Shown: piece by piece, positions 5,439 to 32,412 of the stretch
Numbering within the stretch: the stretch's first letter is position 1
How the letters are laid out: each line of letters begins with the position of its first letter
Source of the DNA: a virus
Taxonomy: Duplodnaviria > Caudoviricetes
Length of the DNA: 64,000 bases
Direction: 5' to 3' (one strand)
Virus record (IMG/VR): IMGVR_UViG_3300028591_000004
Coordinates: 1-64,000 of that record
Translations under genes and position numbers: made by a program
Notes under the pieces: model-generated
The model's input: the letters and a program-made list of their open reading frames with translations, nothing else
Told to the model about the DNA's origin: nothing
Databases searched by the model: none

Positions 5439-5507
5439 GAAATACGTTAATAATAATCAGCGCGGCGAGAGAACGAAAAGGGATTCGTTCTCGTAGCCGC
5501 GTCTTCT

Positions 5508-5540
5508 CTCCATTATGCTCGTTTTCGAAACGGGAGAAAA
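5508..5540 (-). promoter_or_regulatory. Phage-specific promoter-like motif GTTTCGAAA-N5-CATAATGGAG, copy 1
   Basis: Minus strand TTTTCTCCCGTTTCGAAAACGAGCATAATGGAG; four intergenic copies seen. Confidence 0.6.
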
Positions 5541-5559
5541 TCAAAGAAACATAAACGGT

Positions 5560-8500: not shown

Positions 8501-11500
8501 GCAAGATAATTCTGTGCTCTAAGGCCTAACATAGTTGAAGCATGGGAAATAGGTTTATCTTCGTTCGCATGCTTGGTTTCAACAATATTAATCTTCTTTG
8601 AGTTGATTGCGTCAATCTCATTATCAATTTTAGCCATAGATTCTTTTGCGGAATCAATGGCTTCTGCGAGCTTATACCATTCTTCTGAACCAACTTTAAC
8701 CTTGCTTAACTGACTTTCAAGTGCGGCAATGTTAGCAGAATATTGATCTTTTAATCTTAATTGAGCTTCAATCTCATCGTTTAACGAATTAAGATAACCC
8801 TGATAGTTGTTGGTCGTTTCATACCTTGTCTGACGCTCTTGTGCCATTGTGACATCATGCTCACGACGTTTGATGTAATGGCTTTGTCCTTCGAGTAACG
8901 CGTCAGTCGCAGACTTTCCGTTATTGCCGCTGTTGCTAGGTCTTGTCGTAGGTCTGGAATAACTATTTCCGGGTCTTGCACTTATTCCAGACATGCCTAA
9001 CTGAGACAAGAAGGATTGGACATCTATGTGACCATCGCTTAATAAGGCCTGAATATCAACAGAAGCATAGGTTCCAAGCAAGGACATAATGACATCCAGA
9101 ACCCGTTTTTCTTCGTCTCCAAGTTTAGCCGCAAATTCAGAAAGCTCAAGCTGGCCCTCTGCGTTAACGTGGATTAAATCTCCGATCGGCATATTATAGG
9201 AGAATCCTTCGGTCCCTTCAAGGAAACTAAACAGAGAAGCAACGGTATCACTAAACTGCTGAGAGATGATAGGCTGAACCTGATTTAACAACTCATCCAG
9301 TTTTTCTTGAGACATATTGGCGAGTTGATCAGCATCATATGGAAGTAAACCAGCAAGAATATCCAGCGTTTGGTCTCCACGCTTTTTCATTCGATTCAGT
9401 TGCTTACCGGATTTTCCTCTGGCTCTATTGATTGCACCTTGCTGATCCTGGAGATCTTCCATCTGCTTCGTCAGCTTCATTTCAGCCTGTGCAGCATCTG
9501 TTCCGCCTTTGGCAAGGTCTGTTATCGTTTCAGATAATCCATCTACTCCCTTTGCGTATTTAGCAACATCCGCTGCCTTGCTTGCGGCCCAGTTGCTGTT
9601 TAACGCTTTGAGAGCGGCATTTGATCCATTAGCGGCTTGTTCAAGCTCTGGGAATTTAGAGATTATTTCATCGTAGAAACCTCTTAAATTCTCGTCGCCT
9701 TTCATTTTATCAAGAGTTTCACGTAATCCGATACTGTTAAACTGACCACTATGATAATTATTACCAAGAGATGCTTGAGCAATTAAATCATAATATTGAT
9801 AATCTTTGCCGGCCCCATTCATTTGAGCGGTCATAAACTGGTTGTAATCAGCCGAAGTTAATGTCCCGTTACTTAACAATCCCATGGCTGCAACAATACC
9901 GTTGTTGCTCATAACGGCGTTGGTCCAGTTGCTGTCCCAAACAGGATTACCATTTTCATCTTTTTGGTTCTGCACATAGTCCCAGAAATCACCATCGGCT
10001 TGTGGATTATAAGTATCGGCCATTCCCTGGAGCACTTGAGAACCTTTAAATTCATATGTGCTTTGTCTTAATCTGTCTCTTGCTTCCTGATATGCTTGAG
10101 AAAAATCCTGAGTGGCAGCGTTGGATGCGCCTTCAAGAGTGTCAGCATATTCATTGAGACGAGCAGCTGTTTCATCATCAGCTTTAGTAGCTGCTTCTCT
10201 TAACGTCTCAATAAGCGAATCAAAGTCAGTAGCTTCACTTAAATCAATTTCTTCAAGCTCATCAGTTGTTTTATCAATATCAACACCCTTTAAATCTTGT
10301 TCAATAACATCTTTTACATTAGAAAGAATTTCATCTCTTCTTTCGTTAATCATACCAAGAATAGATTCTTGTCCGCCAGATGTTTTCATCTGTTCAGAAA
10401 CATAATCTTGATCTAATCCAAGCAGAGATACAATATCGCCCTGTTTTGAAATCTCTTCAGGAGAAGTTGCCGCTATATTGGCTCGTTCAACGGAAGCAAG
10501 ATCGCTAAAGTATCCGCTTAATACCTGGCCTCTATCAGAACTGCGACCACTCGATAGTAATCTTACGTTGGTTGCTTTTTCCGCTGCGTTTCTGTCTCCG
10601 GCAAAATCTATACTGGCAAGCCACTCAGCATATTTTTCAGCAAAATCTTCAGGCAATTTACCTTCCGATAAAAACTTTTGTAAAGCAGATCCAGCGTCGC
10701 CCATATCGGAGAACATTGCGTCCCACATCTTTACAAGAGGGCTATCTTTACCGTTATTATCGATTTCAGATTGATATCTTGTTCTTATACCGTTAAGTGT
10801 TTCTTCGTCCCAATTTTGATTCGAAAAACCATTTTCACCAAACAGTTTTCTTGATGCAAATCCATATTTATCTGTAGCCTTACCGCCAAATAGAGCCGTA
10901 TTATATGCTGCTTGTAAATCTGTTTCTGTTACACCAGATCCTTCTTGCGAAGCGAGAGTTAACATATACCGTAAGTTTTCATCAATACCGGATAAATCCT
11001 GTGTCTTGTTATTTACAAGTAACGAGGCTCTCTGCCTTAATGTCAAATTTGCATAAGGACCATTCTCTGAGCCAAATATAGCCTGCCGTGCTGCTCCATA
11101 TGCTTTAGCATTTGTCTTGCTCTTTGCGTCAGCAGCCCTTTGGGCTTCGGCTAAACTCGTATAAAGATTTTGTGTTCCTTTATTTACCTGAGCTTCTCCA
11201 CTTTGAACAAAAATTCCAATAGTACGGATATAATTCGCCAGAGCGTCATTTGTTCCGTCGAAATATTTTGCAAGAGTTTCTGTGTCAACATCAGGTCCAA
11301 GTTCAGAGATGTCAACTGCACCGAGCATAAGCTTGAACGCTTCAACAAGAGTTGTATTAAGCTCATCCGACTGAGCAGTAATTGAAGCTTGCAGTGTGGC
11401 TTTTGCATCAGTAGAAGACTTGCCCCACATGGCTTTTATCTGATCCCTTGTATATCCGGTTACAGAAGTAAGTTCTTGAATAATAGTTTCATCTATCTCT

Positions 11501-14500
11501 TCAAACGCTTTATCTGTATCAAGCTGATCTAACGCTGTTTGTCCTCTGGCAAGCTTTTGTTGATTAGCTGTTTGCGTTTGAAGCGCTGCTATTCTATCGG
11601 TTTGGATCTCGCTGGACATGCTCTCATACAAAGCTTGTCCTGCATCATTTTGCGCAGTGTCCCTTGTTTGAGTACCAGTGTATTCATAATGTCCGTTTCT
11701 GATAGCATTTTGCCTGCGTAGAGTTTCATTTGCATCAGTTTTACCATTACGTTTGACGAAACCTCTACTATCGACAGTGTAACCTTCGGGTGGAGTATAT
11801 TCACCTTCAACCCATTCATAACCAGCAAGAGCAGCTGTATGTGCGTCAAAGTTGCTTCTCTCGGACTCGCTTAATTCATTTCGTTCAGTCTTAAGAGATT
11901 CTGCCGATATAGATCTTCTCTCAGTCCGAATACGTTCAGCCTCGGCTGTCCAGAATTCTGGCCTTGCATAATATTCGTCCTGAGAAGCGCCTGTAATCTG
12001 CATAACAGCTTCACGCTTTTCGGCTGCTGTGCCTGAAGCAAGCTTTGCGTCCAGCTGGCCTTCTTTGTTCATTTCAGTTCGAATATTAACAACGGCTTCG
12101 ATTGCAAACCGTCCACCCTTTTTAAGCTGTTCGACATAGTTTGCTGTTCCAGCTAAAAGATCTCCAGCCTCTTCAAGTTCTTTTAATCCTTCAATCTTTA
12201 CTTGGAATTCCAGTTTGTTCTCATAATTATCCAGTGAAGTTTCAAGTTCTTCTAATCGCTTGTCTCCTCCAAGTTTTTCATACAGAGCTTTATCTTTATC
12301 TTTAGCCTGAAGCAAGCCGAGATATTCATTTGCTCCGCCCCAACCGTTTAAATACTGAGAAGCAATATTAGCTCTATACTCGCCTTCTTGGTCTCCTATT
12401 TTAACTCCTTGCCCAATCTGATCTCTGAAACTAGAAAGTCCTTGAAGTTGCTGTCTAGAAGTAAGAGAAGTTAAGCCGACAGCCCGATTAGCAATAGTAG
12501 TGTTTATAAAAGCAGACTCTTCTTTTGAAGCTTGACCTGTTATTGCTTTGTTGTACAGATCCTCACCAAGAACAGTTTTTAACGCGTTCTGTTGTTCAGG
12601 TGATAGATACTTAATATTATTCTTAGCAATGTAAGAATCAATATTCTTTAATTCACCTAAACCTGAATTGTATTTCGACTGATATCCATATTTATAGCTT
12701 TCATAAGCAGACCGAATGTTATTGTTATTCTGCCAATTTGTTTCTGGCCTATTTAATCCGCTTTTTGCGACCCAATCTTCATAGCTTAATAAAGCTCCGT
12801 TTTCTTGTGTAAACTCATCGTTATATTTGTTTAACGCACTTCGATAATCTGCGTCGACTAAACTATAAGACGCTCTTCCACCATTCTGAAGAACGTTTAA
12901 TGCATCAGAAGACAGTTCAGCTAATTCAGAATTCGTATAAGTTCTATTTGCTGTATTTGATGATTTGCTGTACAGATAGGTAAGAATAGTATCAAGAATA
13001 TGTTCTGGCGCAGAAATAACATTGCCTTCTGTGTCAACATTTACACCTTGCATAATTGCCGCAAAATCTTCTTGACGATTTAAAACATCCCAGGCTTCGA
13101 TATTGTTTTCATTGACATAGTCGGCTAGATCCTGAATATCTTTAAATTGATTATTCAGCATCATATCAAGAATAGAATCAGCCGCTAAAACAGAACCATT
13201 TTTCGATTCCCATGCTTGTTTCGACGTTTCCAGACCATTACCAAAGTGATTCTGAACAGCTACAAGATTGGAAAACTGATTTTCCAAGTTTGATCTAACT
13301 TGAGAAACAACTTCTGCGCTTACTTCTGCGCCATTGGCAGCAGCGTCAACAGCGGCTTTCATTTCATCCGAAAGAAGATCATATGCTTCAACAATTTTAT
13401 AATCTTCGATATCTTCTAGTTTTGGTATTACTTTACGAACGCCGGTTAAAATTTTTTCGAGATCGACAACACGTCCCGCGTGAATATCAAATTCGTTTCC
13501 GGACTCAACCCCATCGAAAGAAGTAGCGTCTTCGTATTCGGAAGCTCCTCGATACACCAGCCCGGTTTCACGACTCGTATACCAGGAAGCAGCTCTTGCT
13601 TTAGCTGTTGCTGCTTCTTTATCATCAAGAGAATCTAAAAACTTTCCTTCCGGGTCATATACACGATAGCGCCCATATTGTTTTTCTTCGTTGGCTACTT
13701 CAACAATATCTCTGTATTCTGCGTTTGCATCGTTTTCAGCGTTTTGTCCTTCAAACGAAATAACAGAGCCATCTATATCAGTAACTTCATATGAAGTATT
13801 TTCTTGTTGTTCTCTTTTTGCTCGGGCTAATTGAGCCTGATATTGACGTTCATTTGTTATTGTTTGGGCTCTGGCTTCAGCTTGAGCTGTGTCTACAGCT
13901 TCTAATTGCGAGGCTAATCTTTCAGCTTCTTCAACGGTGTATTTTCTGTCTGGATTGTTTTTATCAATATAATAATCCCCAGTCTCTAACTTATATGCGC
14001 CGTTCTCTGGTTTGATAACGGAAGTATAACCTTCAAGAGAATTAGATATAGTAGCGACAACATTTTCAGCTGTTATAGCACTTGAACTTTCAATATTATT
14101 AAAGCCTAAAACATTTCTTATTGTATTTGCAATTGCTTGCGTTGAAATGTCAATAAGACCGCCATTTGTTGAAGGTAAAGAATTATATATATGTCGCGCT
14201 AACGGTTCGATATATTCTTCTGGAATAAAACTGTAATCTTCACTTGAAAGAAATTTTGATATCTCGGGAATTACTTGATCTTCTAAATTTTTGTTTCGTC
14301 CTTTTGTCCTTGTTGGATCATTCCAATATCCAGCAACAGCATTAAAAACTTCGTCTGGTAAATCTTTGGCGTTTCCAGAAATGCCTGCACGCAAATAATT
14401 TTTCCAAAAGTTTTCATTTTGTCCGATATATTCTGTTGGAATATCATAAACCGATAAATCAGGTGCCATTAAGGCTTCGCTCATTACTCTTGCAAAAGCA

Positions 14501-17500
14501 TTATAATTTTCAACATTCTTATGAGGTAAGCTAAATGGGTTTTTATCGCTTCCTGAAATATGTGTTTTAGTTTTATCGGTTATAGTTACTTCACCAGTTT
14601 CCTGATTAACAGCAAATCCTGCCATTGACAAAAGACCGGAACTGTCTTTAAACCATGCATTATCTGCCTCTTTGGCTGTTGTTGCAATTTGAGCAGAAAT
14701 ATCAGAAACATTTCCATATAAATTTCGAGCTTTTATATTTTCAGCTTCTTCTTTGGATTCATTTAAAATATGATCAGCATACTCTTCAACAGAAGGTTTC
14801 GCATTTTTGGCTGCATCTCCAAGAGCAGAGGTGCTTTTAGCAAGATTATCAAGATTTTCCGAAGCATTGTTTGCTGTTTCTCTTATATCATCAAATGGTA
14901 GTTTAATGTTAAATTTCTCGGAAAGGCTAGTAAGTATTTTTTTGTATTCTTCGGTCTCTTCGTCTGTTCTATTTGCCCCAAGATTTTTTAATTCCGTCGC
15001 TCGATTAATCTGATTTGCAATATTATCATTTGTTGATTTTTGCGCAGTTGTAATGCGATCGTAGCGTTCTTCTGCAGTTTCAGTCCTATTGGTTGCAACA
15101 ATATTTAAACCAAGAGCCGATATTCCTGCGACTGCAGTTCCAATTGCAAGACCGGCAAGAGAACCACTTTTTAACCCAACCATTAAGGATACAATGGGAA
15201 TTAAACCCGCAAGAACACCAGGAAGTTTCGCACCAGAAGCAATAAGATTGTCAACGCCCTGTATTGCATTCGACAAGAATCCTAAAACGTCACCTGCAAT
15301 ATTACTGGTCACTAAATCATTAACCAGTTCATCGTAAATATTTTTGAGATCAGTCATAGACGCAGCAAGACTCTTAGTGTAAATCTCATATTTCTTGTCT
15401 GTAATACCAGAAGACTCTCCGATTAAATCCATATATTTATCGATGTCGCCTTCGGACATGCCTTGCATGATTGCAGAGAAGTTAGAATACATCCGCGTTC
15501 CGGCAATAGCATTGGCTAATTGCTGTTGTTCCGCGTCAGAAATATTATCCCATCTCTGAGACAAATCATATAAGACATCAAAAGAACTTCTCTTATTTCC
15601 ATTTTCATCATATTGCCGAACACCCTGAGCCTCTAAAAGTTTGGCAACAGCAGATCCAGAAACAGCATTACCGTTTTCATCATAGATAAGTTCATTCGTT
15701 CCGACTTTGTTCATCCGTCCGAAAATGGAGTTTAATGTACGGCCTGCGACATTGCCGCCAATCTGAGTAGTTGAAGTAATGGCTGTAAGCATTGCGGCAA
15801 GCTGTCCAAAGGTAGTTCCATCAGCTGCAGCTGCTGCGCCAGCTTTTTCAATACCCTTTTCAATCTGAGCAGCGTTTGTAGCCGCATTGTCACCGAGAGC
15901 AGTGACGATGTCAGAAGCTTCAGAGGCATTATTTACTAATCCTGTATTCATTGCCACTGTAATTAACTTAGTGGCATCATCAACTTTTGTTCCAGAAACT
16001 TTAGAAAACTTCGAAATAACATCTAATCTTTCTTCAACTTCTTCATCGGATAAACCTTGACGGTACAAGGTTGCCGCAGATTTAGAAATCTCAGAAACGG
16101 AGATTTTTAACTCCTTAGCTTTATCAATTAATCTATCTCCGAGGTTTGCAATTTGATTGTCTGTCTTCAGTGTGATCATTTGAATTTCAGTCATTGTAGC
16201 ATCAAATTCTTTAACGAATTTCTTTGCTTCCTGAATGGCTTTCATGAACATTTGACGACCAAAACGAGCAAGCATGTTGGTAACAGACTTACTAACAATG
16301 TTCATGCTTTGTTGCATAACAAGAGCCGATACACTTGTTTGTTTTTCAAGTTTATCTAGTTTTCCAAGATCGTCTTTAAAAGCTTGATCTGAGATTAATC
16401 CAGAATCATGCTTCTTAGTTAAATTATCACGTATATTGGAAATTTGTTCTCTGTATGCATTTGATTGTTGTTGTAGCCTGCCGCCTGGATGACGCTTATT
16501 TTCAAGACTTTCAATTTGTTTGTTGAAAGCTTTTTCATTTTGGTCTACAGTTGCAGCTTGAAGATGATCACGCGAACCTTGAATAACCTTTAAATCATTG
16601 CCAAGTTTATTAGCAGTGTCTTTAAATTGATTTCTTAAATCTTGAGAATATCTTGAATCCTTAGACATTGCCAGCAAACGTTCTTGATCTGCTATAACTT
16701 CTTTAATCTTTTGATCCCAAGCGTTAAGGGACTCTATCTGTGTGTCATACGTTCCCGATGCCTTAGCATCTGCCTCTGTAATACCTTCTAATACTTGAGA
16801 AGAAGTAAGACGAGACAGCTCGCTAAACTCCGTTCCGGCTCTTGCAAAAAGACCATATTCAGGAGAAATAGCCTTTTGAAGATTCGCTTGCTGATCTGAA
16901 GTGAGCATGGAATAAGATGGAGTTTGTATAAAGTCTTTTATATCTCTTTCATACTTTAAAGCAATTCCATTCAGCGTATCAGCTTTAACAATCGACTTAG
17001 GAATACCTTCCGTCTGACGTTGGTATTTCAGAGTTTCTCCGAAAAGATTTTTCGAAAACTCCTGCGCTTTGGTTATAATTTGCTCATAGTTACTTTGAGC
17101 CGCAACCATATCCCATGAATTCGGTCCAGAAGGAGGACCTCCTGGAGGAGTAAAAGGAGGAACAGGCGGATTGTTAGGAGGACCGCCAGGAGGTGGATTG
17201 TTTGGTGGCCCGCTAGGTGGCACCGGAGGATTATTTGGTGGAATAGGAGGATTATTTGGAGGTGTTGGTGGATTGGTGGGAGGGCTACCCGGAGGCGGAT
17301 TATTGGGCGGATTTGTCGGTGGAACTGGAGGATTCGTTGGAGAAGCAGGAAGTTGCTGATTATTTGATTGACTATTCGAAGATGCATTCTTTTTAGCTTC
17401 TTGCTGTTTATGAGCCTCTTCTAATTGTTTTTCTTCATATGCTTTTGCCCATGCATGAACATCATCAGCAGCGTTTGCCTCAGTTAAAATCGAATGAAAT

Positions 17501-20500
17501 TTGTTGTTTTTCCCCCGAATTTTATCCCAGTCATCTTGCAAACTTGAATCTAAAAGACGATTCTCGTTCAAAGCCATCTCCGCCATTATACCCGGAAGCG
17601 GATATGGCATATCTCCCCAATTCATCTGACTAAGACGAGAATATCTTGCTTGAATATCTTTTCCTGAAATTCCTGTTTTAGGTTTATTTGCCGTATTGTG
17701 ATTTGCTTCGTTCGGACAATGCCCTAAGGATGCAGGATATTCTGTACCACAAACCCCACAAATCATCGTTGCGTCTGTTTGTGTCTGTGGTTGAATTTCT
17801 TTTTCAATGTTAGGAACTGGGACAACCGCAAGAGGTGTAGCCATTTCTGCAGGCGAAGTTATCTTTACGCCAGAAGCTAATTGGCTCACCTGTAATGCAT
17901 TAACTGCTTGTTGGGCAGAAACTTTACCAATACCCGGCAAAGAGAGAAGTCCTTTTGCGTTATTCTCTGTAACAGCTTTTAAAAGAGCATCTCTGTTTTC
18001 ATCAGCCAATAAAGTATTGATTCTTGAATCTATAATCCCAGCGTTATGCAGAAGTTCTCTTGCTTCGTCTTCTGGTTTCTTTAATAAATCAGATGGAACT
18101 GTTCGATCAGGAATTGTTGTTTCTTCGGGTTTTTGTATTGCGAATCGTTCTTGAGCCTGAGGAGGAAGCTTTTCACTTGTTGTTACAATAGCCTTTGGTT
18201 CTTGACGAGGTGAAACAACTGGAGCAGATTCCTTTGGTTGCTCTTGCTTTGCAGGCTGTTGAGGCTCAGAAGGAACTGTGACAACTGGAGGAGTAGGTTT
18301 AACAAAGTCAGCAGATCCAATAATCTGATCAAAAGTTTTACCTTCTCTTTCTGCTACATCTTTGAAATGTGCGCTAACCCATGGAGCGTTATTCATAACT
18401 GCTTCGTTTGCGCCATACTTCTCAAAGTTTTCAAATGCCACGCCGCCAATATCCATTAACCTTTGTTTTTTTCTCTTGGCAGAATTTTCACTATGTGGAT
18501 CTATTTCATTTTCAATTTCTTTTTGTGCTTTTTCATACTGCTCTCTTAAGGCAGCAACAGTATCATTGCTTGCAACAAGATATTTGGATGTCAGGAAATC
18601 ACTTCTGACCCCACGCATCATCTGAACAAACTTTCCTTGCTCAGAATCAGCTGAAACACCCTTTGGTAATTTTAATCCATAATTTGGATCCTTGAGAATT
18701 TCTTCCCAATTATAAAGACCTTTATCTGGATCGATACCTTTTTGACGAGCTGTCCAACGTCCAGATAAAGCGCCCATTAATCCGCCTTGGAAAACAGAAG
18801 GCAGGCCAAGTGAATCTATCTTTTGCTGTTCAAGATACGCTTTCGATTTTCCTGTCCATTCTCTTGTTGAGTCATCGTTTGCACCAGTTGTTTCAATAGC
18901 TTCATTAGCATATTTAAAAATTCTGGAAAAAGACTTACCGAGATCTGCTGCAGCTGCTTGTTCATCTGTCTGCTGCCAGCTTTCGTCAGTCTTCATGTGT
19001 GTTGAAACTACATCATATTGAGATTCGTAGTCTCTAATAGCCTGAGCGAGAGAACCACGTAAATTCGGATCGTTGAGACCAGCATAATAAAGCGCAGCCA
19101 TATCTGCACTTCGTTCAGCTGATCCCATCATCCAGGTTTGCTGTTGACCATTTACAAGATATGTTGCAGCATCATAAGGATCTCTTGCGCTATAGCCGCC
19201 ATCCTTAGGCGTTGAACGTATTGTCCGACCTTCTTTTCTAGTGTTTTGATTTTCCCATGCTTTTTGAAATTCTGGGGTTCCGGGCTCTGCTCCGGAAAAA
19301 ACAGCTTTAACTTCTTGGTCTGATGCGTTTGCAATGATTCTCATAACCTCTGAGAATTCTTTTGCTTCTTCGGGTTTCTTATCAGACAATCCGAAATAGC
19401 CATTCAAATCTCCATCGAAATCTTCACCTTGAAGCAATTGAAGAATAGGGGAGTTCGGAGCGAAATAAAGACCCTTTGTGTCAACGATACCAGAAGATCT
19501 GGCAAGTCTGTTTATTTTTTCTGCAGAAACAGCACCTTCTGACATTAGCTGTTCAGCCGAAACATTATTAACAGTTACGTTACCGCTTTTTGTTGCGGGG
19601 AACCGAATAATTCCAAGCTGCCGATTCAGAGACTCCATAGAGATAACATCGTTGTCTTTTAGCTGAAGAGCCTCCTGCTCTGGAGTCAATGCAATTTTAG
19701 CTTCTTTTAATCTATTGTTTATAACGTTTTGCGGATTGGGTGCAGCCATTGCATATTTAAAAACGCCAGTAGGCAAAAGTTTATCGCCTTCGTTGTAATG
19801 CGCCCACATTCCTGCTATATGATCATCAATTACTTTTTTTGATTCAGCCGTTGTTAAATCAACAGATTGATCGCCATTAAAAAGTGCGTCTCGTACATAT
19901 TGATCATTATCGAGTCGCGCTAATTCATCGAAAAAAGTTTTATCGAAAAACCGTTGTACTCGTGGATCTCTGAACCCAGCGTTCATAGAAGAATTAATTA
20001 CTTGTTTGGAAAGCCATCTGGAAGAAGTATTTGCATCATCATAAGTCGTTTTCGCAGATACACCAAAGTCACCGTATTCCTGAGATCTGATTGCATTCCA
20101 TTCTTCTTGCGTTCTTGGGCCAACATTTTTAGAATATTTTATATTATTTATATCCTCGATAACGTCAGTGTCTTTAGAAATCCGGAGATCTCCACCATTT
20201 ACACCGGCATTCGGGATAATTAAATCTCCTCCATATTGATTCATAATGGAGGCTTCTTTTGTCCTGTGTTGGGCATTAATCTTATCAAGTCGCTCTTTGC
20301 GCGAATCTTCAATCTCTTTAATCCGTGCTTCACGCTCTTCTTGATCTGTTTCGTATTTATTAACTCTTGCTAATTTTCTATCTGCTTTTTCATTGACCTT
20401 TGCAACGCGAGCTTCGGTTTCTTTATTTAATTCTGCAACTCTGGCTTCAGTCTCTTCATTACCTTCAATTTGCTTGTAGTTTTTAAAACGAAGATCTTCC

Positions 20501-22536
20501 ATCTTAATGGGAACATATGTAGCTTTCCCACCAAATGTTCTACCTTGAAAACCTTTGTTTGATACGCGGTCGCTTATCCAGTTGGATCCGTCCATGTCGC
20601 TTTCGCCGAAACGTCCAACAACAACTTTCAGATCTTTTTTTGCACCAAGCCAAGACTCAAGACTTTCGCCTTCTGTTGCCATGTTGCTGCGGCTGTACAT
20701 GGATTTTGCAAAAGGCTGGAATTTATCAAAATGACCCAAGCCTCCGCCATTTGTCAGCAACGTTAATCCAGCTTCACGAATTTCATCTGCTGTTTTACTT
20801 GCAGCTTCTGCACCTAAAACTCTCCGTCCTAAATCATCTATTATATCAGATCTGATAAATTCAGCATGCGTTTTGCCAATTCTTGTATTAATATAATGAT
20901 GTCCATTGGCATCATATCCATTTTTAAATAGATCGCCGTATCTTTGAATGTATTGTTGACGTTGTTTTTCTGTAAGATTTGGATCGCTAAGTTCTTTATC
21001 GTATTTTAAATAAATTGCATTATCACTGAATTCGTTCTGTCCAACTTTTGAAGCGGAAGGAGTAGATTCAATTAGCTTATAAAGCAGGCTGTCTCTTAAA
21101 CTCATGGTATGAAAATCAGACGGAGCAATGTTCCGATTGATTTTCTGTCCGTTAATATCAACCTCGCCTTTTTTTGTTGGCCCTGTAACACCAGAAAGTT
21201 CGACCCATTGACCGCCTTTTTGAATAATAGGATGATATCCGGAAATCTGAGCTTTTCCTTCCATCATGTCAAGAGTATATTCTGCAAAAGCTCTGGATGT
21301 TTTACGCGGAGAATGGTTAATTCTTCCGATATATTCTCCTGCGTCGCTTGTTGCATCAAATTTAGCTAAATCAAGCCATTCTCCGTTTGCGCCTTTTTGC
21401 TTATAATATCCAGGATTTAACCATGTCCCAAACGCGTCCTGCATTGCCCGAGCTGCTTGAAGGCCACCGTCAAGAATATTATTAGCGCCTATTTTGCCGA
21501 ATATGTTTTTCCATGATCTAGGATCTTCAACGTCTGTAATACCGTACTTTCTTTCACCTTGTGCTGCGGAAACAATATCAGACATAATGTGCCCAGCCAT
21601 TGCATTAACCATGTCATGAGTTGTATCATGGTTGAAATACATTTTCTGACCAGACTTTGCAATCACTCCGGCTTTTACAGCCGCGTCTGCAGCATATCGA
21701 TTATTTCTGACAAGCTGGCTTAATGAATCAATTTCTTCTCTCGACAGTGTTGCACTACCGTATTGAGTACTTCCAAGAGAACGGTAATCACTTGCCTTTT
21801 CATAAGCAGGAATCTGACGAAAACTTTCCGGTAACATCTCGCGAAACGAACCTGGATTAGTCCGAAACTGAACCTGAGTGCCACCCGTTACAGCTTCTCT
21901 CATATACTGGGGGACATTCATTGGCAGTGTTGCTTTTAAATACTGCCGCATGTTTTGATTGGAGAAAACTTCAGGGTGACTCGGATTGGCCTGTGCTAAC
22001 CTTTGAGAGATCTTTCTGTATTCGTCTCCCGTCATGTACCTGTCGACGATTTCATCATCCGTTAATTTTCGAGATACTGTGCTTGAAATGGTACTTGCAG
22101 TGGTGCGTATTCCGGTAGAAAGCTGAGATACGATTCCTTTCAAGCCTTCGGAAAACACCTGACTCATTTGGGGGCCAAGTGAGTCTAATAACTGCTGAGC
22201 AAGACTTTGAGAGTTTGTTAGATCTTTAATGGATGCATTAGCTACTTCAACTTTTCTTTTAAACGCATTCGATAAGTCTTCGCGCTCATAAGAACTCAAA
22301 GCGTGGTCCATTGAATTTCTTACTCTAACAATATTGTCCAAATCCTTTTGCCACTCAGAAAGCTTTCCTTCAAACGCCTGGTTATATCCTGGCAAAACAG
22401 ACGTGGAAACAGATTCGGTTGATGTTTGTTCTGCATTCTTTTTTAATGTTGATATTCTTTCTTCGATTTCATCGACTTTTTGATTCATTGGATCATCGTT
22501 GATGTCCACCTGTAATGTTAAAATTTCAGAATCCAT
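5560..22536 (-). CDS. Giant tape measure protein (5658 aa) with N-terminal RdRP/YonO-like RNA polymerase domain
   Basis: TP901-type TMP core from about aa 2095 (EFDATMTEIQMIT...SAATLYRQG...GNVAGRTLNSIFGRM); long helical C-terminal region ending HGGKIDFTGLAWVDGT; lies just upstream of Dit. N-terminal part has DMDGSNWISD (aa 647), FQGRTFGGKA, IIRFP (aa 978), GEDFDGD (aa 1039), HhH GLLSLPGIGKVSA, a CxxC...HC motif and a Pro-rich linker. Confidence 0.9.
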   Translation of the reverse strand: MDSEILTLQVDINDDPMNQKVDEIEERISTLKKNAEQTSTESVSTSVLPGYNQAFEGKLSEWQKDLDNIVRVRNSMDHALSSYEREDLSNAFKRKVEVANASIKDLTNSQSLAQQLLDSLGPQMSQVFSEGLKGIVSQLSTGIRTTASTISSTVSRKLTDDEIVDRYMTGDEYRKISQRLAQANPSHPEVFSNQNMRQYLKATLPMNVPQYMREAVTGGTQVQFRTNPGSFREMLPESFRQIPAYEKASDYRSLGSTQYGSATLSREEIDSLSQLVRNNRYAADAAVKAGVIAKSGQKMYFNHDTTHDMVNAMAGHIMSDIVSAAQGERKYGITDVEDPRSWKNIFGKIGANNILDGGLQAARAMQDAFGTWLNPGYYKQKGANGEWLDLAKFDATSDAGEYIGRINHSPRKTSRAFAEYTLDMMEGKAQISGYHPIIQKGGQWVELSGVTGPTKKGEVDINGQKINRNIAPSDFHTMSLRDSLLYKLIESTPSASKVGQNEFSDNAIYLKYDKELSDPNLTEKQRQQYIQRYGDLFKNGYDANGHHYINTRIGKTHAEFIRSDIIDDLGRRVLGAEAASKTADEIREAGLTLLTNGGGLGHFDKFQPFAKSMYSRSNMATEGESLESWLGAKKDLKVVVGRFGESDMDGSNWISDRVSNKGFQGRTFGGKATYVPIKMEDLRFKNYKQIEGNEETEARVAELNKETEARVAKVNEKADRKLARVNKYETDQEEREARIKEIEDSRKERLDKINAQHRTKEASIMNQYGGDLIIPNAGVNGGDLRISKDTDVIEDINNIKYSKNVGPRTQEEWNAIRSQEYGDFGVSAKTTYDDANTSSRWLSKQVINSSMNAGFRDPRVQRFFDKTFFDELARLDNDQYVRDALFNGDQSVDLTTAESKKVIDDHIAGMWAHYNEGDKLLPTGVFKYAMAAPNPQNVINNRLKEAKIALTPEQEALQLKDNDVISMESLNRQLGIIRFPATKSGNVTVNNVSAEQLMSEGAVSAEKINRLARSSGIVDTKGLYFAPNSPILQLLQGEDFDGDLNGYFGLSDKKPEEAKEFSEVMRIIANASDQEVKAVFSGAEPGTPEFQKAWENQNTRKEGRTIRSTPKDGGYSARDPYDAATYLVNGQQQTWMMGSAERSADMAALYYAGLNDPNLRGSLAQAIRDYESQYDVVSTHMKTDESWQQTDEQAAAADLGKSFSRIFKYANEAIETTGANDDSTREWTGKSKAYLEQQKIDSLGLPSVFQGGLMGALSGRWTARQKGIDPDKGLYNWEEILKDPNYGLKLPKGVSADSEQGKFVQMMRGVRSDFLTSKYLVASNDTVAALREQYEKAQKEIENEIDPHSENSAKRKKQRLMDIGGVAFENFEKYGANEAVMNNAPWVSAHFKDVAEREGKTFDQIIGSADFVKPTPPVVTVPSEPQQPAKQEQPKESAPVVSPRQEPKAIVTTSEKLPPQAQERFAIQKPEETTIPDRTVPSDLLKKPEDEARELLHNAGIIDSRINTLLADENRDALLKAVTENNAKGLLSLPGIGKVSAQQAVNALQVSQLASGVKITSPAEMATPLAVVPVPNIEKEIQPQTQTDATMICGVCGTEYPASLGHCPNEANHNTANKPKTGISGKDIQARYSRLSQMNWGDMPYPLPGIMAEMALNENRLLDSSLQDDWDKIRGKNNKFHSILTEANAADDVHAWAKAYEEKQLEEAHKQQEAKKNASSNSQSNNQQLPASPTNPPVPPTNPPNNPPPGSPPTNPPTPPNNPPIPPNNPPVPPSGPPNNPPPGGPPNNPPVPPFTPPGGPPSGPNSWDMVAAQSNYEQIITKAQEFSKNLFGETLKYQRQTEGIPKSIVKADTLNGIALKYERDIKDFIQTPSYSMLTSDQQANLQKAISPEYGLFARAGTEFSELSRLTSSQVLEGITEADAKASGTYDTQIESLNAWDQKIKEVIADQERLLAMSKDSRYSQDLRNQFKDTANKLGNDLKVIQGSRDHLQAATVDQNEKAFNKQIESLENKRHPGGRLQQQSNAYREQISNIRDNLTKKHDSGLISDQAFKDDLGKLDKLEKQTSVSALVMQQSMNIVSKSVTNMLARFGRQMFMKAIQEAKKFVKEFDATMTEIQMITLKTDNQIANLGDRLIDKAKELKISVSEISKSAATLYRQGLSDEEVEERLDVISKFSKVSGTKVDDATKLITVAMNTGLVNNASEASDIVTALGDNAATNAAQIEKGIEKAGAAAAADGTTFGQLAAMLTAITSTTQIGGNVAGRTLNSIFGRMNKVGTNELIYDENGNAVSGSAVAKLLEAQGVRQYDENGNKRSSFDVLYDLSQRWDNISDAEQQQLANAIAGTRMYSNFSAIMQGMSEGDIDKYMDLIGESSGITDKKYEIYTKSLAASMTDLKNIYDELVNDLVTSNIAGDVLGFLSNAIQGVDNLIASGAKLPGVLAGLIPIVSLMVGLKSGSLAGLAIGTAVAGISALGLNIVATNRTETAEERYDRITTAQKSTNDNIANQINRATELKNLGANRTDEETEEYKKILTSLSEKFNIKLPFDDIRETANNASENLDNLAKSTSALGDAAKNAKPSVEEYADHILNESKEEAENIKARNLYGNVSDISAQIATTAKEADNAWFKDSSGLLSMAGFAVNQETGEVTITDKTKTHISGSDKNPFSLPHKNVENYNAFARVMSEALMAPDLSVYDIPTEYIGQNENFWKNYLRAGISGNAKDLPDEVFNAVAGYWNDPTRTKGRNKNLEDQVIPEISKFLSSEDYSFIPEEYIEPLARHIYNSLPSTNGGLIDISTQAIANTIRNVLGFNNIESSSAITAENVVATISNSLEGYTSVIKPENGAYKLETGDYYIDKNNPDRKYTVEEAERLASQLEAVDTAQAEARAQTITNERQYQAQLARAKREQQENTSYEVTDIDGSVISFEGQNAENDANAEYRDIVEVANEEKQYGRYRVYDPEGKFLDSLDDKEAATAKARAASWYTSRETGLVYRGASEYEDATSFDGVESGNEFDIHAGRVVDLEKILTGVRKVIPKLEDIEDYKIVEAYDLLSDEMKAAVDAAANGAEVSAEVVSQVRSNLENQFSNLVAVQNHFGNGLETSKQAWESKNGSVLAADSILDMMLNNQFKDIQDLADYVNENNIEAWDVLNRQEDFAAIMQGVNVDTEGNVISAPEHILDTILTYLYSKSSNTANRTYTNSELAELSSDALNVLQNGGRASYSLVDADYRSALNKYNDEFTQENGALLSYEDWVAKSGLNRPETNWQNNNNIRSAYESYKYGYQSKYNSGLGELKNIDSYIAKNNIKYLSPEQQNALKTVLGEDLYNKAITGQASKEESAFINTTIANRAVGLTSLTSRQQLQGLSSFRDQIGQGVKIGDQEGEYRANIASQYLNGWGGANEYLGLLQAKDKDKALYEKLGGDKRLEELETSLDNYENKLEFQVKIEGLKELEEAGDLLAGTANYVEQLKKGGRFAIEAVVNIRTEMNKEGQLDAKLASGTAAEKREAVMQITGASQDEYYARPEFWTAEAERIRTERRSISAESLKTERNELSESERSNFDAHTAALAGYEWVEGEYTPPEGYTVDSRGFVKRNGKTDANETLRRQNAIRNGHYEYTGTQTRDTAQNDAGQALYESMSSEIQTDRIAALQTQTANQQKLARGQTALDQLDTDKAFEEIDETIIQELTSVTGYTRDQIKAMWGKSSTDAKATLQASITAQSDELNTTLVEAFKLMLGAVDISELGPDVDTETLAKYFDGTNDALANYIRTIGIFVQSGEAQVNKGTQNLYTSLAEAQRAADAKSKTNAKAYGAARQAIFGSENGPYANLTLRQRASLLVNNKTQDLSGIDENLRYMLTLASQEGSGVTETDLQAAYNTALFGGKATDKYGFASRKLFGENGFSNQNWDEETLNGIRTRYQSEIDNNGKDSPLVKMWDAMFSDMGDAGSALQKFLSEGKLPEDFAEKYAEWLASIDFAGDRNAAEKATNVRLLSSGRSSDRGQVLSGYFSDLASVERANIAATSPEEISKQGDIVSLLGLDQDYVSEQMKTSGGQESILGMINERRDEILSNVKDVIEQDLKGVDIDKTTDELEEIDLSEATDFDSLIETLREAATKADDETAARLNEYADTLEGASNAATQDFSQAYQEARDRLRQSTYEFKGSQVLQGMADTYNPQADGDFWDYVQNQKDENGNPVWDSNWTNAVMSNNGIVAAMGLLSNGTLTSADYNQFMTAQMNGAGKDYQYYDLIAQASLGNNYHSGQFNSIGLRETLDKMKGDENLRGFYDEIISKFPELEQAANGSNAALKALNSNWAASKAADVAKYAKGVDGLSETITDLAKGGTDAAQAEMKLTKQMEDLQDQQGAINRARGKSGKQLNRMKKRGDQTLDILAGLLPYDADQLANMSQEKLDELLNQVQPIISQQFSDTVASLFSFLEGTEGFSYNMPIGDLIHVNAEGQLELSEFAAKLGDEEKRVLDVIMSLLGTYASVDIQALLSDGHIDVQSFLSQLGMSGISARPGNSYSRPTTRPSNSGNNGKSATDALLEGQSHYIKRREHDVTMAQERQTRYETTNNYQGYLNSLNDEIEAQLRLKDQYSANIAALESQLSKVKVGSEEWYKLAEAIDSAKESMAKIDNEIDAINSKKINIVETKHANEDKPISHASTMLGLRAQNYLAKGQFENYAAVTQAQIQNYRNDIEMNNYQIEEWEKLLKTYKKGTQDWITVRDNIWKLKEQNAEIENQILTETQNLQQAKISQIATDLQNALEPFSHEQDMLSTWSGIYQKENQYGAYRGALASQNAYSADQLKLYQASIDGLKQQMATLEEGSPAWLSARSAIFEYEAAMAQLTATIRDNNEAIEESYVLETTTQYEDANKSAQHELRMAQIAAQGYKDAGDYENYKAMLDVQRDLTAENLRVKQSGLEAMEELLNSGKLKEGSTQWKALREQIMALREEILQTENDYASIVRQVRETDFSHAVEQFQEQDNNYQHELRLIQFQETRYQNRSELTNYGHALEWDNETQKKRAEAIEEQIDLLEQQRDAAKDDPELYKKIDAEIKKMEETLASTNNTIEKNNKLIEKNQEDIKKLAKNIEDTLDKEIKAQEKMRREMLQGEVNVQNSILNVIKKEKQDEWNLEKKTREEHKKTLQNEKNLINERLNARKAAIDAEDKYELLAEYQKQLALISMDPTRSKDAKELRRQISDLQKELSWNITEDEAQAAMDALDDEIQAEDDYIQVHEEDLKELLENSGNFMDQVKDIMGNSYEDYDQYLAWMKEHNEDYKNSSAEMQQSMEQGWKDTWDKMYGHTDTYWDQIMGLMSNKEEFLDFMKQSQDYMNASENGKWILEHQWSTAYDNYAASLVDNAEFADNHEILDKMSEMKEWTYKVEPIPGYQYDYGQYATTGPQYFWTRTPDDTTGVAQAAVDESYDKYSKVVGSDAELYKSQQEEKPVSTPVYIVTSGGGGSTTTYGGGGGSNPPKNTPSPKKHYEFYWGSKRYSGYNSWNEATTALKKIYDQERALLDRSNANAYGYRQLEDFYKRAQGTVKQYKHGGKIDFTGLAWVDGTKSQPESILSAYDTKALMGLTEALRYVSVSPSLAPDTTKYGNNTSIGDINITINQAELKDDADYEDVARRVGKAFTKQLNKEGFNLARYAF

Positions 22537-22572
22537 AGAAAAGCTCCTTTCTGAGTCTTAGTAAAATATTTT

Positions 22573-22602
22573 TTGACAATCTATATGTAAAGCTCGTATA
22601 AT
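22573..22602 (+). promoter_or_regulatory. Sigma-A/sigma-70-type promoter of helicase cassette
   Basis: TTGACA-18 nt-TATAAT, then RBS GAGGTG before ATG 22633. Confidence 0.75.
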
Positions 22603-22632
22603 GGTTTGAGCTTGTAATCAGAGGTGAAATAA

Positions 22633-24276
22633 ATGGGTTTTTTCAATAAAACGAAAGAACTTAAAACAGAGAACTTGGAATTAAAGAGAAAACTTGAGAG
22701 AATATTAAAAGAAAAAGAATCTCTTGAAGATGATCTCTTTAATCTCAAGCAAGAAATTAAATACTTAAAAAACAAGAATCAAATACTTGAAAAAGAAAAC
22801 GACTCCTTAAAAATTCAAATAGAAAAGAGTAAACAAAAAACTGATAAACCATCGTCTCCTGTTACTGTATTCAATAACTATGAATTAACAGACGAACAGC
22901 TTGCTTTTTTCAATGTGATGGAAAACACAAGAGATAATTATTTCATTACAGGAAAAGCAGGCACAGGAAAATCAACTGTTCTAAGTTATTTCAAACAAAC
23001 TACAAAGAAAAAAGGAGTTGCCATTGTTGCTCCCACTGGAGCAGCCGCTTTAAATGTTAACGGTCAGACAATCCATTCTTTGTTTAAGCTTGATTTTGAA
23101 CCGCAGGATACTCATTCAAAAAGTAAGGTTTCCACAAACCCAGCGGTATTGGATGTTTTGAGATCCATAAAAATGTTGATAATCGATGAAATATCTATGG
23201 TCCGTGCGGACGTAATGGATATGATTGATGCAAAACTGCGTCTGGCAAATAAAAACGATCTACCGTTTGGAGGATGTCAGATAATTGCATTTGGTGATTT
23301 ATACCAACTGCCTCCAGTCGCCGTAGATAGAATAGAAAAAGATTTCATTATATCCAGATATAACACGCTGTTTTTCTTTGGAGCCCCCGCTGTTAAAGAA
23401 ACATTCAAAATCATTGAACTAACCAAAGTTCTAAGACAACGGGATGCCCAATTCATAAACATATTAAATCGTGTACGGGATGGCAGTGTAACAACATCCG
23501 ACATTGATCTTATCAATTCAAGGTGTGTTCTAGGACAAATTCCGAATGATTGTTTAAAACTGGTTTTGACAAGAAATACAGCAAAAAGAATCAACGAAGA
23601 AAAACTTTCTATGATTAAAGAAAAAGAATGGATATATGAAACTGAGCTTGAAGGAAACAACCCTCCATCAAAAGAAGACGTTCCGTTTGATTTTACGCTC
23701 CGTTTAAAGATCGGCGCAAAAATCATGACTGTATATAATGATCCGGCAAAACAATATATAAACGGATCAATTGGTGAAGTTGTTGATTTGTCAACAGATG
23801 TAATCAAAATCAAAATTGATAATAAAATATGTGATGTAAATCCTATTCTGTGGATGAAAAAAATATACCGGATAAATAAAACAACCGGCGAACTTGATTC
23901 TGAGGTCGTCGGATGGGCTAAACAATTTCCTTTGAGATTGGCATACGCTATAACCGTGCATAAATCACAAGGACAAACATACGATCAGGTAGTAATTGAT
24001 TACTCAAACAATACGACATTTGCAAATGGCCAGACATATGTTGCAATATCAAGATGCAGAACTCTTCAGGGTTTGTATCTTGTCCGTCCGCTAACAAAAC
24101 AGGATATCAACATAAACACAGAAGTCACGCAATTCATAAAGACGCAAAACAACCAGCCAGTCAAACAAAGTCATGAACCTTTGCCTGTAGAGAAAGAAAC
24201 TAAATTCGATCTTTCTTGGACAATAACTCCAGAAGATAAAGCCCTTTACGAAGAAATTCAGTCATATAAACATTAA
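22633..24276 (+). CDS. PIF1/RecD-like SF1B helicase with N-terminal coiled coil
   Basis: GKAGTGKS, APTGAAA, IIDEISMV, FGGCQIIAFGDLYQLPPV, QFPLRLAYAITVHKSQGQT, YVAISR. Confidence 0.9.
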   Translation: MGFFNKTKELKTENLELKRKLERILKEKESLEDDLFNLKQEIKYLKNKNQILEKENDSLKIQIEKSKQKTDKPSSPVTVFNNYELTDEQLAFFNVMENTRDNYFITGKAGTGKSTVLSYFKQTTKKKGVAIVAPTGAAALNVNGQTIHSLFKLDFEPQDTHSKSKVSTNPAVLDVLRSIKMLIIDEISMVRADVMDMIDAKLRLANKNDLPFGGCQIIAFGDLYQLPPVAVDRIEKDFIISRYNTLFFFGAPAVKETFKIIELTKVLRQRDAQFINILNRVRDGSVTTSDIDLINSRCVLGQIPNDCLKLVLTRNTAKRINEEKLSMIKEKEWIYETELEGNNPPSKEDVPFDFTLRLKIGAKIMTVYNDPAKQYINGSIGEVVDLSTDVIKIKIDNKICDVNPILWMKKIYRINKTTGELDSEVVGWAKQFPLRLAYAITVHKSQGQTYDQVVIDYSNNTTFANGQTYVAISRCRTLQGLYLVRPLTKQDININTEVTQFIKTQNNQPVKQSHEPLPVEKETKFDLSWTITPEDKALYEEIQSYKH

Positions 24277-24277
24277 A

Positions 24278-24306
24278 TTGACAGGATTCGTTTTGCATGT
24301 TATATT
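24278..24306 (+). promoter_or_regulatory. Sigma-A-type promoter with extended -10
   Basis: TTGACA-17 nt-TATATT, with TG one base upstream of the -10. Confidence 0.6.
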
Positions 24307-24336
24307 CTGACATCATCGGTGAAGGGAGTTTTCTGA

Positions 24337-24723
24337 ATGAATTGGAAAGAATGCATCTTGAAATGGAAACCAGAAACCGAGTGGCAACCGATCATTGACA
24401 AGTGGATAAAAGAAAATCCAAATCCAGAGTCTTGGTTTACCCTTTGGATTTGGCCGGAAAACAGTGACCCTAAACAGACCGAATATTTGAAAAAGCTTTT
24501 GAAAGACCGTGAAATTAAATACACCGAAAAATATGATTATGGCAACGAACTGCCAGCCGCAATTGATTCTGTTGTCTATTGCGCTGGCGACTTAACCGTC
24601 GAAAATGCAAATTCCGAATTAAACAAGATAACATTAAACGACAAAGGAGTTTTTTACGAAGGTGTTCATGTCGCATTAATCGGACAGTACATGGACGAGC
24701 AGATGTTTGGAAAAGGAGTTTAA
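24337..24723 (+). CDS. Hypothetical protein
   Basis: 128-aa ORF with RBS AAGGGAG. Confidence 0.6.
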   Translation: MNWKECILKWKPETEWQPIIDKWIKENPNPESWFTLWIWPENSDPKQTEYLKKLLKDREIKYTEKYDYGNELPAAIDSVVYCAGDLTVENANSELNKITLNDKGVFYEGVHVALIGQYMDEQMFGKGV

Positions 24724-24724
24724 G

Positions 24725-24961
24725 ATGAGTGGATTGTCTTGTCCGAACTGTGACTCGACTAAATTCAAACCCGAGTATGAACAAGATGGATTGTATGTCT
24801 GTAAAGAATGCGGTAAAGTAATTGGATACTACTGCAACGGCTGCGGAAGATTTTATTCTTCCAACGGATTAGGCCTTCATGGAGACGTTTACGAATGTAA
24901 ACTTTGCGGAAAAATACAATGGGGTTACACAGAATACAAAAGAGCGGGGGAGGGGCAGTAA
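24725..24961 (+). CDS. Small zinc-ribbon protein (four CxxC)
   Basis: MSGLSCPNC...CKEC...CNGC...CKLC; RBS AAGGAG. Confidence 0.7.
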   Translation: MSGLSCPNCDSTKFKPEYEQDGLYVCKECGKVIGYYCNGCGRFYSSNGLGLHGDVYECKLCGKIQWGYTEYKRAGEGQ

Positions 24962-31410: not shown

Positions 31411-32412
31411 TTAAGCGATCAGGTGAGCACCGCTGGTCGGATTCTTGCCGGTCACAAACGCGGCACCGAACCAGGTGTCCAGACGGACTTCGTACACCAT
31501 ATCGTCAATGTTCTGAGAAGCCAGAGAATTGACGCCGCCCTCGTTGACGACCTTCAGGTTCCTCAGTTCGGGAGACTGTCCACCGGGGATGATATACAGC
31601 CAGTCAGTCGCCAGAATAGGAGTCACACCGTCTTCGTCGTAGGCGTTGTTCATTGCGATAACAGCGCAGCCATTGTAATTGCCGATGAAGCCATTCTGAT
31701 TGCGCTCATCCAGCATGTTGCCGGAGTACTGCATGGTCGGAGTAGCGTTCACAGCCATACCGGTGTAGGGAGCCAGTTGAGCAACAGACGCCATATCGCC
31801 CAGAATGCTCACCGGGCCAAGACGACGGAAGTGCTGCAGCTGAGCGTCCAGAGTAGCCTGATTCAGACCACCGGTGCTCTTCGCATAGAACGGAGAACCG
31901 AAGTTGGCAATAGAAGTGTGCAGAACCCTTTGGATAACGCCCAGCTTCTTCTTTGTCATTTCGTCATTGGCTTCCTGAATCAGATCGCCAATGTTCACCC
32001 TGTTCGCCCGCAGATCAATGATGTTGATAGCAGGACGGGCAGAGATTTCCTTGGTGTCAACCAGAATCTGGCTGTCAGCAACATAGCTGCGAGGAGTGGT
32101 AGAACCCTTCGCCTGAATAACAGCCTTGATGCCACCGGTCTTCACCTTGAAAGCGGCCTTCTCGCCGTAGGAGATATTCTTGATGTCCGCAACCAGACCC
32201 AGGAAATCCAGAGCCTTCTGCTGCAGTTCCTCAACCGTAAACGCAACGATCTGACCGATCTGATGGCAGTTCTGAGGATTCAGATCCTGTGCCAGCACAG
32301 AAACAATCTGATTTGCCTCTTCGATCTTATCGGAGTCAACACGCTCGTTGCGAGCCTGCGCGGCCAGGACCTTGATTAATTTCATGCCGCGTTCGACTTT
32401 AATGTCAGCCAT
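31411..32412 (-). CDS. Major capsid protein
   Basis: 333 aa from ATG 32412 with RBS GGAGGTG; strong codon bias; position after scaffold and decoration genes. Confidence 0.8.
   Translation of the reverse strand: MADIKVERGMKLIKVLAAQARNERVDSDKIEEANQIVSVLAQDLNPQNCHQIGQIVAFTVEELQQKALDFLGLVADIKNISYGEKAAFKVKTGGIKAVIQAKGSTTPRSYVADSQILVDTKEISARPAINIIDLRANRVNIGDLIQEANDEMTKKKLGVIQRVLHTSIANFGSPFYAKSTGGLNQATLDAQLQHFRRLGPVSILGDMASVAQLAPYTGMAVNATPTMQYSGNMLDERNQNGFIGNYNGCAVIAMNNAYDEDGVTPILATDWLYIIPGGQSPELRNLKVVNEGGVNSLASQNIDDMVYEVRLDTWFGAAFVTGKNPTSGAHLIA

Follow-up and report, generated by a model that had tools for sequence, protein, structure and literature searches.

Does the tail ruler of a phage also bring a polymerase into the host? 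Tape measure proteins (TMPs) fill the tail lumen, are expelled at infection and form a conduit for the DNA. The question is raised by a TMP encoded in IMG/VR record IMGVR_UViG_3300028591_000004, a complete-looking virus record of 150,780 bp with a 127-bp terminal repeat, of which bases 1–64000 were analysed (hereafter, the window). The TMP open reading frame (ORF; P0001) comprises 5,658 amino acids (aa) in a single open frame on the minus strand (5560–22536), and a ribosome-binding site, AAAGGAG, lies 7 nucleotides (nt) before its ATG. A sequence-only reading of the window had proposed that the N-terminal part of this ORF is a double-psi-barrel RNA polymerase (RNAP) delivered by way of the tail. 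In the analysis presented here, aa 401–1400 are modelled as such a polymerase, and the reading that we favour, at a probability of about 0.7, is that the TMP-borne RNAP would be injected and would transcribe early phage genes.

The architecture, which the sequence-only reading took to be undescribed, was in fact published in 2024 for gp96 of phage P23-45, a 5,002-aa TMP-fused virion RNAP (Chaban et al. 2024, Nat Commun 15:317, PMC10770324). In the literature searched, TMP-fused virion RNAPs are documented only for the Thermus Oshimavirus group, and in GenBank the TMP–RNAP fusion is annotated in Oshimavirus relatives only.

A predicted polymerase domain ahead of the tape measure core

The 5,658-aa ORF was identified as a TMP because PF10145 (PhageMin_Tail) matches aa 2139–2346 (15499–16122, minus strand, as for all TMP features below; E 2.6e-26), eleven PHROG TMP families match the ORF, and a Kyte-Doolittle scan located two hydrophobic membrane-type segments at aa 2431–2482 (15091–15246). 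The position also fits a tape measure, with distal tail protein (Dit) and Tal-like genes downstream. The C-terminal part is an ordinary Firmicutes-type TMP, in which a coiled coil, the PF10145 core and the two membrane segments are followed by a long ruler and a C-terminus that is conserved. At ∼0.15 nm per residue, the tail would be about 850 nm long were the whole 5,658-aa chain to set its length, and about 580–640 nm were the RNAP module not to contribute. A tblastn search with the last 1,000 aa against 50,697 GenBank phage records returned no match. Approximately 2,100 residues precede the core, close to the 2000 or so that had been noted from the sequence.

Residues 401–1400 (18337–21336) were modelled with AlphaFold2 (AF2) from an alignment of 16 homologues, which gave a pLDDT of 80.3 and a pTM of 0.74. 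When the model was searched against the PDB using Foldseek, the first 19 ranks (17 listed) were all QDE-1 or RDR2, with probabilities of 0.94–1.00 (1.0 for rows 1–6) and E values from 3e-4. In an all-against-representatives structure search the top match was QDE-1 (Z 14.2, 470 residues), with maize RDR2 second (Z 13.1, 492 residues) and gp62 of Thermus phage P74-26 third (Z 11.0 over 436 residues); matches ranked below gp62 were generic, to one helical hairpin. A second-look structural alignment yielded Z 15.2 over 499 residues for RDR2 and Z 10.8 for gp62/gp64. Superpositions on QDE-1 and RDR2 aligned ∼470–520 residues with a root-mean-square deviation of 4.3–6.3 Å and 9–12% identity. Among the predicted viral structures of BFVD, the best matches were phage proteins named RNA-dependent RNA polymerase (RdRP; E 2.8e-10 and 1.1e-6), and the nearest clusters in the ESM Atlas were viral RdRP-like proteins (TM 0.52/0.56 over 609 residues). 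The structures 8H2M and 8H2N of gp96, a type marked by a flat architecture without a clamp, were absent from the listed Foldseek and VIA matches, which is not taken as a fold difference.

The motifs expected of such an enzyme occur at the places in the TMP N-terminus where they had first been read. The block of the second double-psi beta-barrel (DPBB-B), KVVV..MDG.N...FQG-R666-x4-K671-AT, spans aa 637–673 (20518–20628; the DMDG...FQGR-x4-K part is aa 647–673). Within it, all 17 homologues share Q664, G665, R666, K671 and T673, and QGR-x4-K is kept in 33 of the 35 long family members, the exceptions P0039 (FLSR) and P0044 (FQAR) retaining the Arg and the Lys. A long helical hairpin in the connector position between the barrels (aa 692–769; 20230–20463; model helices 294–328 and 332–368) found generic helical-hairpin matches only, for example E. 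coli beta 945–1039. To barrel A belongs the R-x-P motif IIR978-F-P980-ATKSGN at aa 976–986 (19579–19611; IIRFP, aa 976–980), in which the Arg and the Pro are kept in 35/35 long members. It lies 58 residues before D1039, a spacing that satisfies [RK]xPx{20,100}DxDxD, the filter of Chaban et al. The catalytic metal-binding loop of DPBB-A, DFDGD, is at aa 1039–1043, exactly at 19408–19422 as the sequence-only reading had it, and is followed in the model by long helices (model residues 655–679 and 688–704), in the region where a bridge helix and trigger loop would be expected; the structural alignments reach model residue ∼865.

Conservation of the metal loop, the check that had been proposed for it, is complete: DFDGD is present in all 17 close homologues, and each of the 35 long members has D-x-D-[G/S]-D. 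The variants seen (DFDGD, DEDGD, DIDGD, DLDGD, DYDGD and DLDSD) differ at non-catalytic positions only. A scan of every ORF of at least 60 aa in the 150,780 bp gave just four instances of D-x-D-[G/A]-D, three of them in the three large RNAP-like ORFs; given this rarity, the motif set stands above chance. The polymerase catalytic site, with R666 and K671 in barrel B and R978-x-P980 and D1039-F-D-G-D1043 in barrel A, is predicted to be intact.

At the sequence level, the domain was compared with a second polymerase of the same genome, a stand-alone YonO-like two-barrel RNAP of 807 aa encoded on the plus strand (41212–43635, ATG at 41212), which carries FDGFGII, IRGPWLKA, TRNP and DYDGD in order. 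A profile-profile alignment of the TMP domain with this YonO-like family brought all four motif pairs (MDG/FDG, R-x4-K, R-x-P and DxDGD) into collinear register, bearing out the shared order that the sequence-only reading had noted. In this alignment R666 and K671 pair with the Arg and the Lys of IRGPWLKA, and DFDGD pairs with DYDGD; DFDGD also aligns with DFDGD 779–783 of gp96. No relationship was detected by BLASTP of TMP aa 1–1900 against the stand-alone RNAP (E > 4), by phmmer of aa 401–1500 against PDB sequences, or by PF05183 against aa 1–1900 at E ≤ 0.1, unlike the stand-alone RNAP, which PF05183 matches above cut-off (E 9.4e-8). Using shallow profiles, hhalign comparisons with gp96 and with the stand-alone RNAP were not significant; deeper profiles gave E 5.7e-4 for the YonO-like family, 0.006 for gp96 (DFDGD only) and 0.08 for gp64, values that cannot decide the sister family.

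Based on the fold, the conservation of the motifs and the constant architecture of the family described below, aa 401–1400 are assigned, at the level of the model, to the single-chain two-barrel RNAPs of the RdRP/YonO-like class. The proposal of a double-psi-barrel RNAP in the N-terminus therefore holds, the top structural matches of the AF2 model being two-barrel RNAPs.

The family and the layout of the fused protein

An exhaustive HMMER search of 1.84 billion protein representatives recovered 55 relatives of the RNAP domain; at 50% identity, the family amounts to about 40 clusters. Every long relative (3,695–6,027 aa) carries the RNAP domain at about aa 390–1400, before the TMP core, and the 35 long members span down to 22–24% identity. 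PF10145 lies downstream of the domain even in the distant members P0043 and P0027, and the YRQG core motif lies downstream in all 35; therefore, in the contigs examined, the polymerase family occurs essentially only within TMPs or directly abutting TMP genes. A free-standing form of the domain was not found in these contigs. Three short relatives that appeared to stand alone (P0021, P0030 and P0042) were considered as free RNAPs and rejected, as their brevity reflects in-frame TAG recoding, a single TAA or an overlapping split. In two distant members from two samples (L013:2882–7078 and L014:2171–6367), the frame is interrupted by TAG codons only, which indicates that at least some of the TMP–RNAP family resides in phages where TAG encodes a residue, the protein being split by gene callers. 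In the long members, the polymerase active site, conserved and under constraint, forms one translation product with the TMP.

Conservation is unevenly distributed along the protein. Regions aa 1–400 and aa 401–1400 equal the TMP core and the C-terminus in conservation, whereas the tether (aa 1401–1810) and the middle of the ruler (aa 2601–4600) can barely be aligned across the family. The first 400 residues (21337–22536) form a conserved N-terminal module, modelled by AF2 as a helical bundle plus a small alpha/beta domain (pLDDT 86.6), with 22–63% identity across the family at 94% coverage. Neither Foldseek (E ≥ 0.4) nor VIA (Z < 8) matched this module to a PDB entry, and for the fold of aa 1–420 generic helical bundles were the sole matches.

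The poorly conserved tether at aa ∼1400–1810, which links the RNAP to the TMP, contains a helix-hairpin-helix-like (HhH-like) motif, LLSLPGIGKVSAQQAV, at aa 1530–1548 (17893–17949), and a Cys/His cluster, CGVCG...HC (CxxC...HC), at aa 1593–1613 (17698–17760), possibly a small zinc-binding element. The sequence-only reading had named them as an HhH and a Zn-ribbon-like motif; each falls below the Pfam cut-off (HHH, E 0.12; Zn_ribbon_LapB, E 0.33). The HhH-like element nevertheless recurs, as LxxhxGIGxxxA, at the equivalent place in 11/17 close relatives, while the Cys/His cluster is not conserved in the homologue alignment. A Pro/Asn-rich low-complexity linker follows, as read from the sequence, at aa 1730–1805 (17122–17349). 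Release of the polymerase by cleavage near this linker had been suggested; the suggestion is not supported, as a Pro-rich stretch is found in only 5/35 family members and gp96 is uncleaved in virions (PMC10770324).

Proposed delivery by the tail ruler and its alternatives

Under the favoured reading, the polymerase would travel inside the particle as a portion of the TMP, arrive at the cell envelope or in the cytoplasm before the DNA does, and transcribe the first-entering (pre-early) genes without host RNAP. These genes probably include one or both of the stand-alone YonO-like RNAP genes (41212–43635; genome 66536–69364), whose products would then take over later transcription. The gene at 41212 is probably among the first to enter. 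No other large plus-strand gene lies nearer to the point at which the late (minus) and early (plus) blocks diverge, and no strong sigma70-like promoter precedes it.

Injection of a virion RNAP is considered the best reading because P23-45 gp96 is an experimentally proven precedent. The N-terminal two-barrel RNAP of gp96 has its DFDGD at 779–783 and an active fragment at 327–1124, is present in virions as full-length, uncleaved gp96, and binds and transcribes the pre-early genes, one of which encodes the non-virion RNAP gp64 (PMC10770324). The protein described here resembles gp96 (also of P74-26, G20c and TSP4; Oshimavirus; PDB 8H2M, 8H2N) in being a giant TMP with an N-terminal single-chain two-barrel RNAP bearing DFDGD, in having an extension before the RNAP that is non-essential or of unknown function, and in its association with a stand-alone two-barrel RNAP in the genome and a very long predicted tail. 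The two differ in several respects. A tblastn search of the 50,697 GenBank phage records with the TMP RNAP domain finds nothing, and hhalign similarity to gp96 is confined to the DFDGD neighbourhood (E 0.19 with shallow profiles; E 0.006 over 30 columns with a 35-sequence profile). Furthermore, the TMP core and large terminase (TerL) are like those of Firmicutes phages rather than Thermus phages; here, a long hairpin separates the barrels, the first 400 aa form a conserved module and the tether is HhH-like; there are two companion RNAPs versus one; and the setting is a mesophilic animal gut.

Several observations weigh against the favoured reading. Pfam and PHROGs gave no real hit on aa 1–1900, and the significance of the YonO-like profile alignment is weak (E 5.7e-4, probability 30%). 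Genome-wide k-mer counts did not bring out a clear consensus for promoters of a phage RNAP. The phage probably relies on host RNAP as well, acting at sigma70-type promoters, since perfect and near-perfect examples are present: TTGACA-18-TATAAT lies at 22573–22602, before the helicase gene at 22633, and matches at 11 of 12 positions, oriented for leftward transcription, occur near 39.8–40.4 kb. Lastly, the covalent fusion of RNAP and TMP may not be obligatory, because two relatives depart from it. In L011 (697–7178, TAG=Q), the TGA of an RNAP-module gene of 1,818 aa overlaps the ATG of the next gene (ATGA), which begins exactly at the TMP core (…QIQAITMKTD…LYRQGLSD); the layout of this 7-kb contig reflects either a natural split or a frameshift. 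In the close relative L012 (1130–6134), one in-frame TAA stands directly after the RNAP domain (equivalent to ∼aa 1375–1400) and the frame then stays open to the contig end; the codon may have arisen by nonsense mutation or sequencing error, or may serve for read-through. Both are single short contigs, which may contain errors.

Among the alternatives, the one that survives best, although we regard it as improbable, is that the fused polymerase is mainly a motor, transcribing the entering end of the DNA at the TMP pore and so pulling in the 151-kb genome, with gene expression secondary. Transcription-driven internalisation is known for T7, and the large genome and very long predicted tail would suit such a role, which is compatible with every sequence result. 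It does not, however, run counter to injection for early transcription; the sequence does not separate a motor from an expression role, and P23-45 gp96 makes defined pre-early transcripts (PMC10770324).

A slightly smaller likelihood attaches to the RNAP module not being delivered at all. It would then be made separately or cut off in tail assembly, and would serve inside the infected cell as a third non-virion RNAP, the shared ORF coupling its expression to that of the TMP. The split genes of L011, the TAA after the RNAP domain in L012 and the poor conservation of the tether that follows this domain are what such an arrangement might leave. Yet 35 independent long ORFs hold one frame, a late structural gene is an odd site for a non-virion enzyme in a genome that already has two stand-alone RNAPs, and gp96 is found uncleaved in virions (PMC10770324), while the two exceptional contigs are short, single and possibly erroneous.

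The structural ranking bears on a third alternative, which we consider very unlikely, namely that the domain is an RNA-templated polymerase like QDE-1 or RDR2, or a primase for replication of the injected DNA. The best solved-structure matches are indeed the eukaryotic RdRPs QDE-1 (Neurospora) and RDR2 (Arabidopsis, maize), with Z 14–15; these are RNA-silencing enzymes with 9–12% identity to the domain and have no phage or tail context. The tested bacterial and phage members of the class are reported to be DNA-dependent RNAPs, among them YonO and phi14:2 gp66. The same was found for P23-45 gp96 and gp64 (PMC10770324). Neither an RNA genome nor an RNA-interference context is present here, and the phage encodes replication genes of its own. 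Least likely of all is a catalytically dead domain exapted as a structural part of the tail: nothing specific speaks for it beyond low AF2 confidence at the catalytic loop (model residues 639–646), but RNAP models usually show flexibility at the metal loop, and the three Asp and R-x-P are kept in 35/35 diverged members, with the DPBB-B Arg and Lys kept in nearly all.

Other known polymerases provide partial parallels to delivery by the tail ruler. YonO of Bacillus phage SPbeta, like other phage RdRP-like RNAPs (PF05183), shares the single chain, the placing of barrel B before barrel A, and the motifs R-x4-K, R-x-P and DxDGD; YonO differs in being a free ∼800-aa protein, and the TMP domain matches neither PF05183 nor any PHROG. 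The crAss-like phi14:2 gp66 and the virion RNAP (vRNAP) of coliphage N4 are likewise particle-carried polymerases within very large proteins that start early transcription, but they belong to podovirus-type particles, packed there as capsid or internal cargo instead of being joined to a tape measure. The N4 vRNAP is, moreover, T7-like and not two-barrel.

Companion polymerases, phage context and wider meaning

The stand-alone RNAP at 41212–43635 matches phrog_8308 (E 9e-80), and tblastn relates it to YonO of SPbeta-like phages at 26–27% identity (E 1e-30 to 1e-38); it is the candidate non-virion RNAP. Directly upstream of its ATG lies a non-coding stretch of ∼230 nt (40985–41211, plus strand) that is GC-rich and apparently structured and contains no sigma70-like promoter. 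The gene falls within a compositional island (40000–48000) with a GC content of 0.48–0.53, versus 0.35–0.42 over most of the remaining window, and an antisense open frame of 795 aa (41182–43569, minus strand) is probably a by-product of this composition and no gene. A third two-barrel RNAP of 942 aa is encoded on the plus strand beyond the window (genome 66536–69364; L007:1012–3840); it contains DVDGD, LRSPHL and VRGPYVKG, has a Cys-rich C-terminus, and is 25% identical to the YonO-like RNAP at 41212. Both stand-alone RNAPs are also encoded by a 108-kb relative (G001), which points to a lineage with three RNAPs.

The early region is further marked by hairpins with CAAG loops and GC-rich stems of 4–8 bp, which are enriched on the plus strand; 15 were counted on both strands compared with about 5 in shuffled sequences. 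Plus-strand examples in this region lie at 44569, 46157, 47548, 56884 and 60440 of the window and at 69452 and 80455 of the genome, and several are followed by a GATAAGGTGAG-like sequence. For a phage RNAP, these hairpins may serve as promoters, as terminators or as processing sites. Divergent from the TMP start, across an intergenic gap at 22537–22632, is a plus-strand gene for a Dda/PIF1-like helicase (22633–24276). The divergent helicase–TMP layout recurs in the relative L002, which suggests that the TMP begins its own transcription unit within the structural module.

The minus strand of the window holds this siphovirus-type structural module, which includes TerL (36175–37812), the portal (34577–36169) and a match to a major-head-protein family (31411–32421; phrog_2522, E 7e-4) in a product that scores better against PHROGs without an assigned function. 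Immediately after the TMP comes Dit (4299–5375; phrog_33, E 8.9e-18), and then a large minor tail protein in the Tal position, which extends beyond the window (3–4283; phrog_6211, E 4.5e-17). TerL is closest to those of Clostridium phage c-st and SPbeta-like phages, and in tblastn the TMP core is closest to TMPs of Firmicutes phages, including SPbeta YomI, with 0 Thermus among 86 records. Judged by TerL, the TMP core and the YonO homologue, the backbone of the phage is of SPbeta / c-st, Firmicutes type.

The virus is a non-contractile-tailed phage of 151 kb from the animal gut or rumen. Its DNA was found in animal-gut and sheep-gut metagenomes, and a DNA contig from a public run, which may be the source sample, covers 5200–24900 with 0 differences. 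Among gut metatranscriptomes, those of sheep included, three libraries contain contigs that match parts of the TMP gene at 100% identity, among them the DFDGD site (19252–19467) and the linker (17193–17947). These contigs were not counted as proof of TMP expression, owing to low depth and possible DNA carry-over.

As a kind, the TMP–RNAP fusion is thus already known (PMC10770324); what the sequence comparisons add is a polymerase family without detectable similarity to gp96. The profile scores obtained do not tell a separate origin of the fusion from a very old one held in common with the Thermus phages. We tentatively suggest that the fusion may have arisen independently in SPbeta / c-st-like gut Firmicutes phages from a duplicated YonO-like gene, the fused enzyme acting as the first of a three-polymerase cascade. 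If this is true, polymerase delivery by the tail ruler would be a convergent and recurrent solution and not an oddity of Thermus phages.

The family described here represents a second set of TMP-fused RNAPs of equal architecture, in mesophilic animal-gut phages with a Firmicutes-phage backbone. The enzyme is compact (∼1,000 aa) and well modelled, which makes it suited to studying the passage of a folded polymerase in or through the tail tube. Three two-barrel RNAPs per genome likewise offer a natural system for the division of labour and promoter specificity among such enzymes. Taken together with gp96, the finding suggests that delivery of a transcription enzyme by the tail ruler may be a general strategy among very long-tailed phages.

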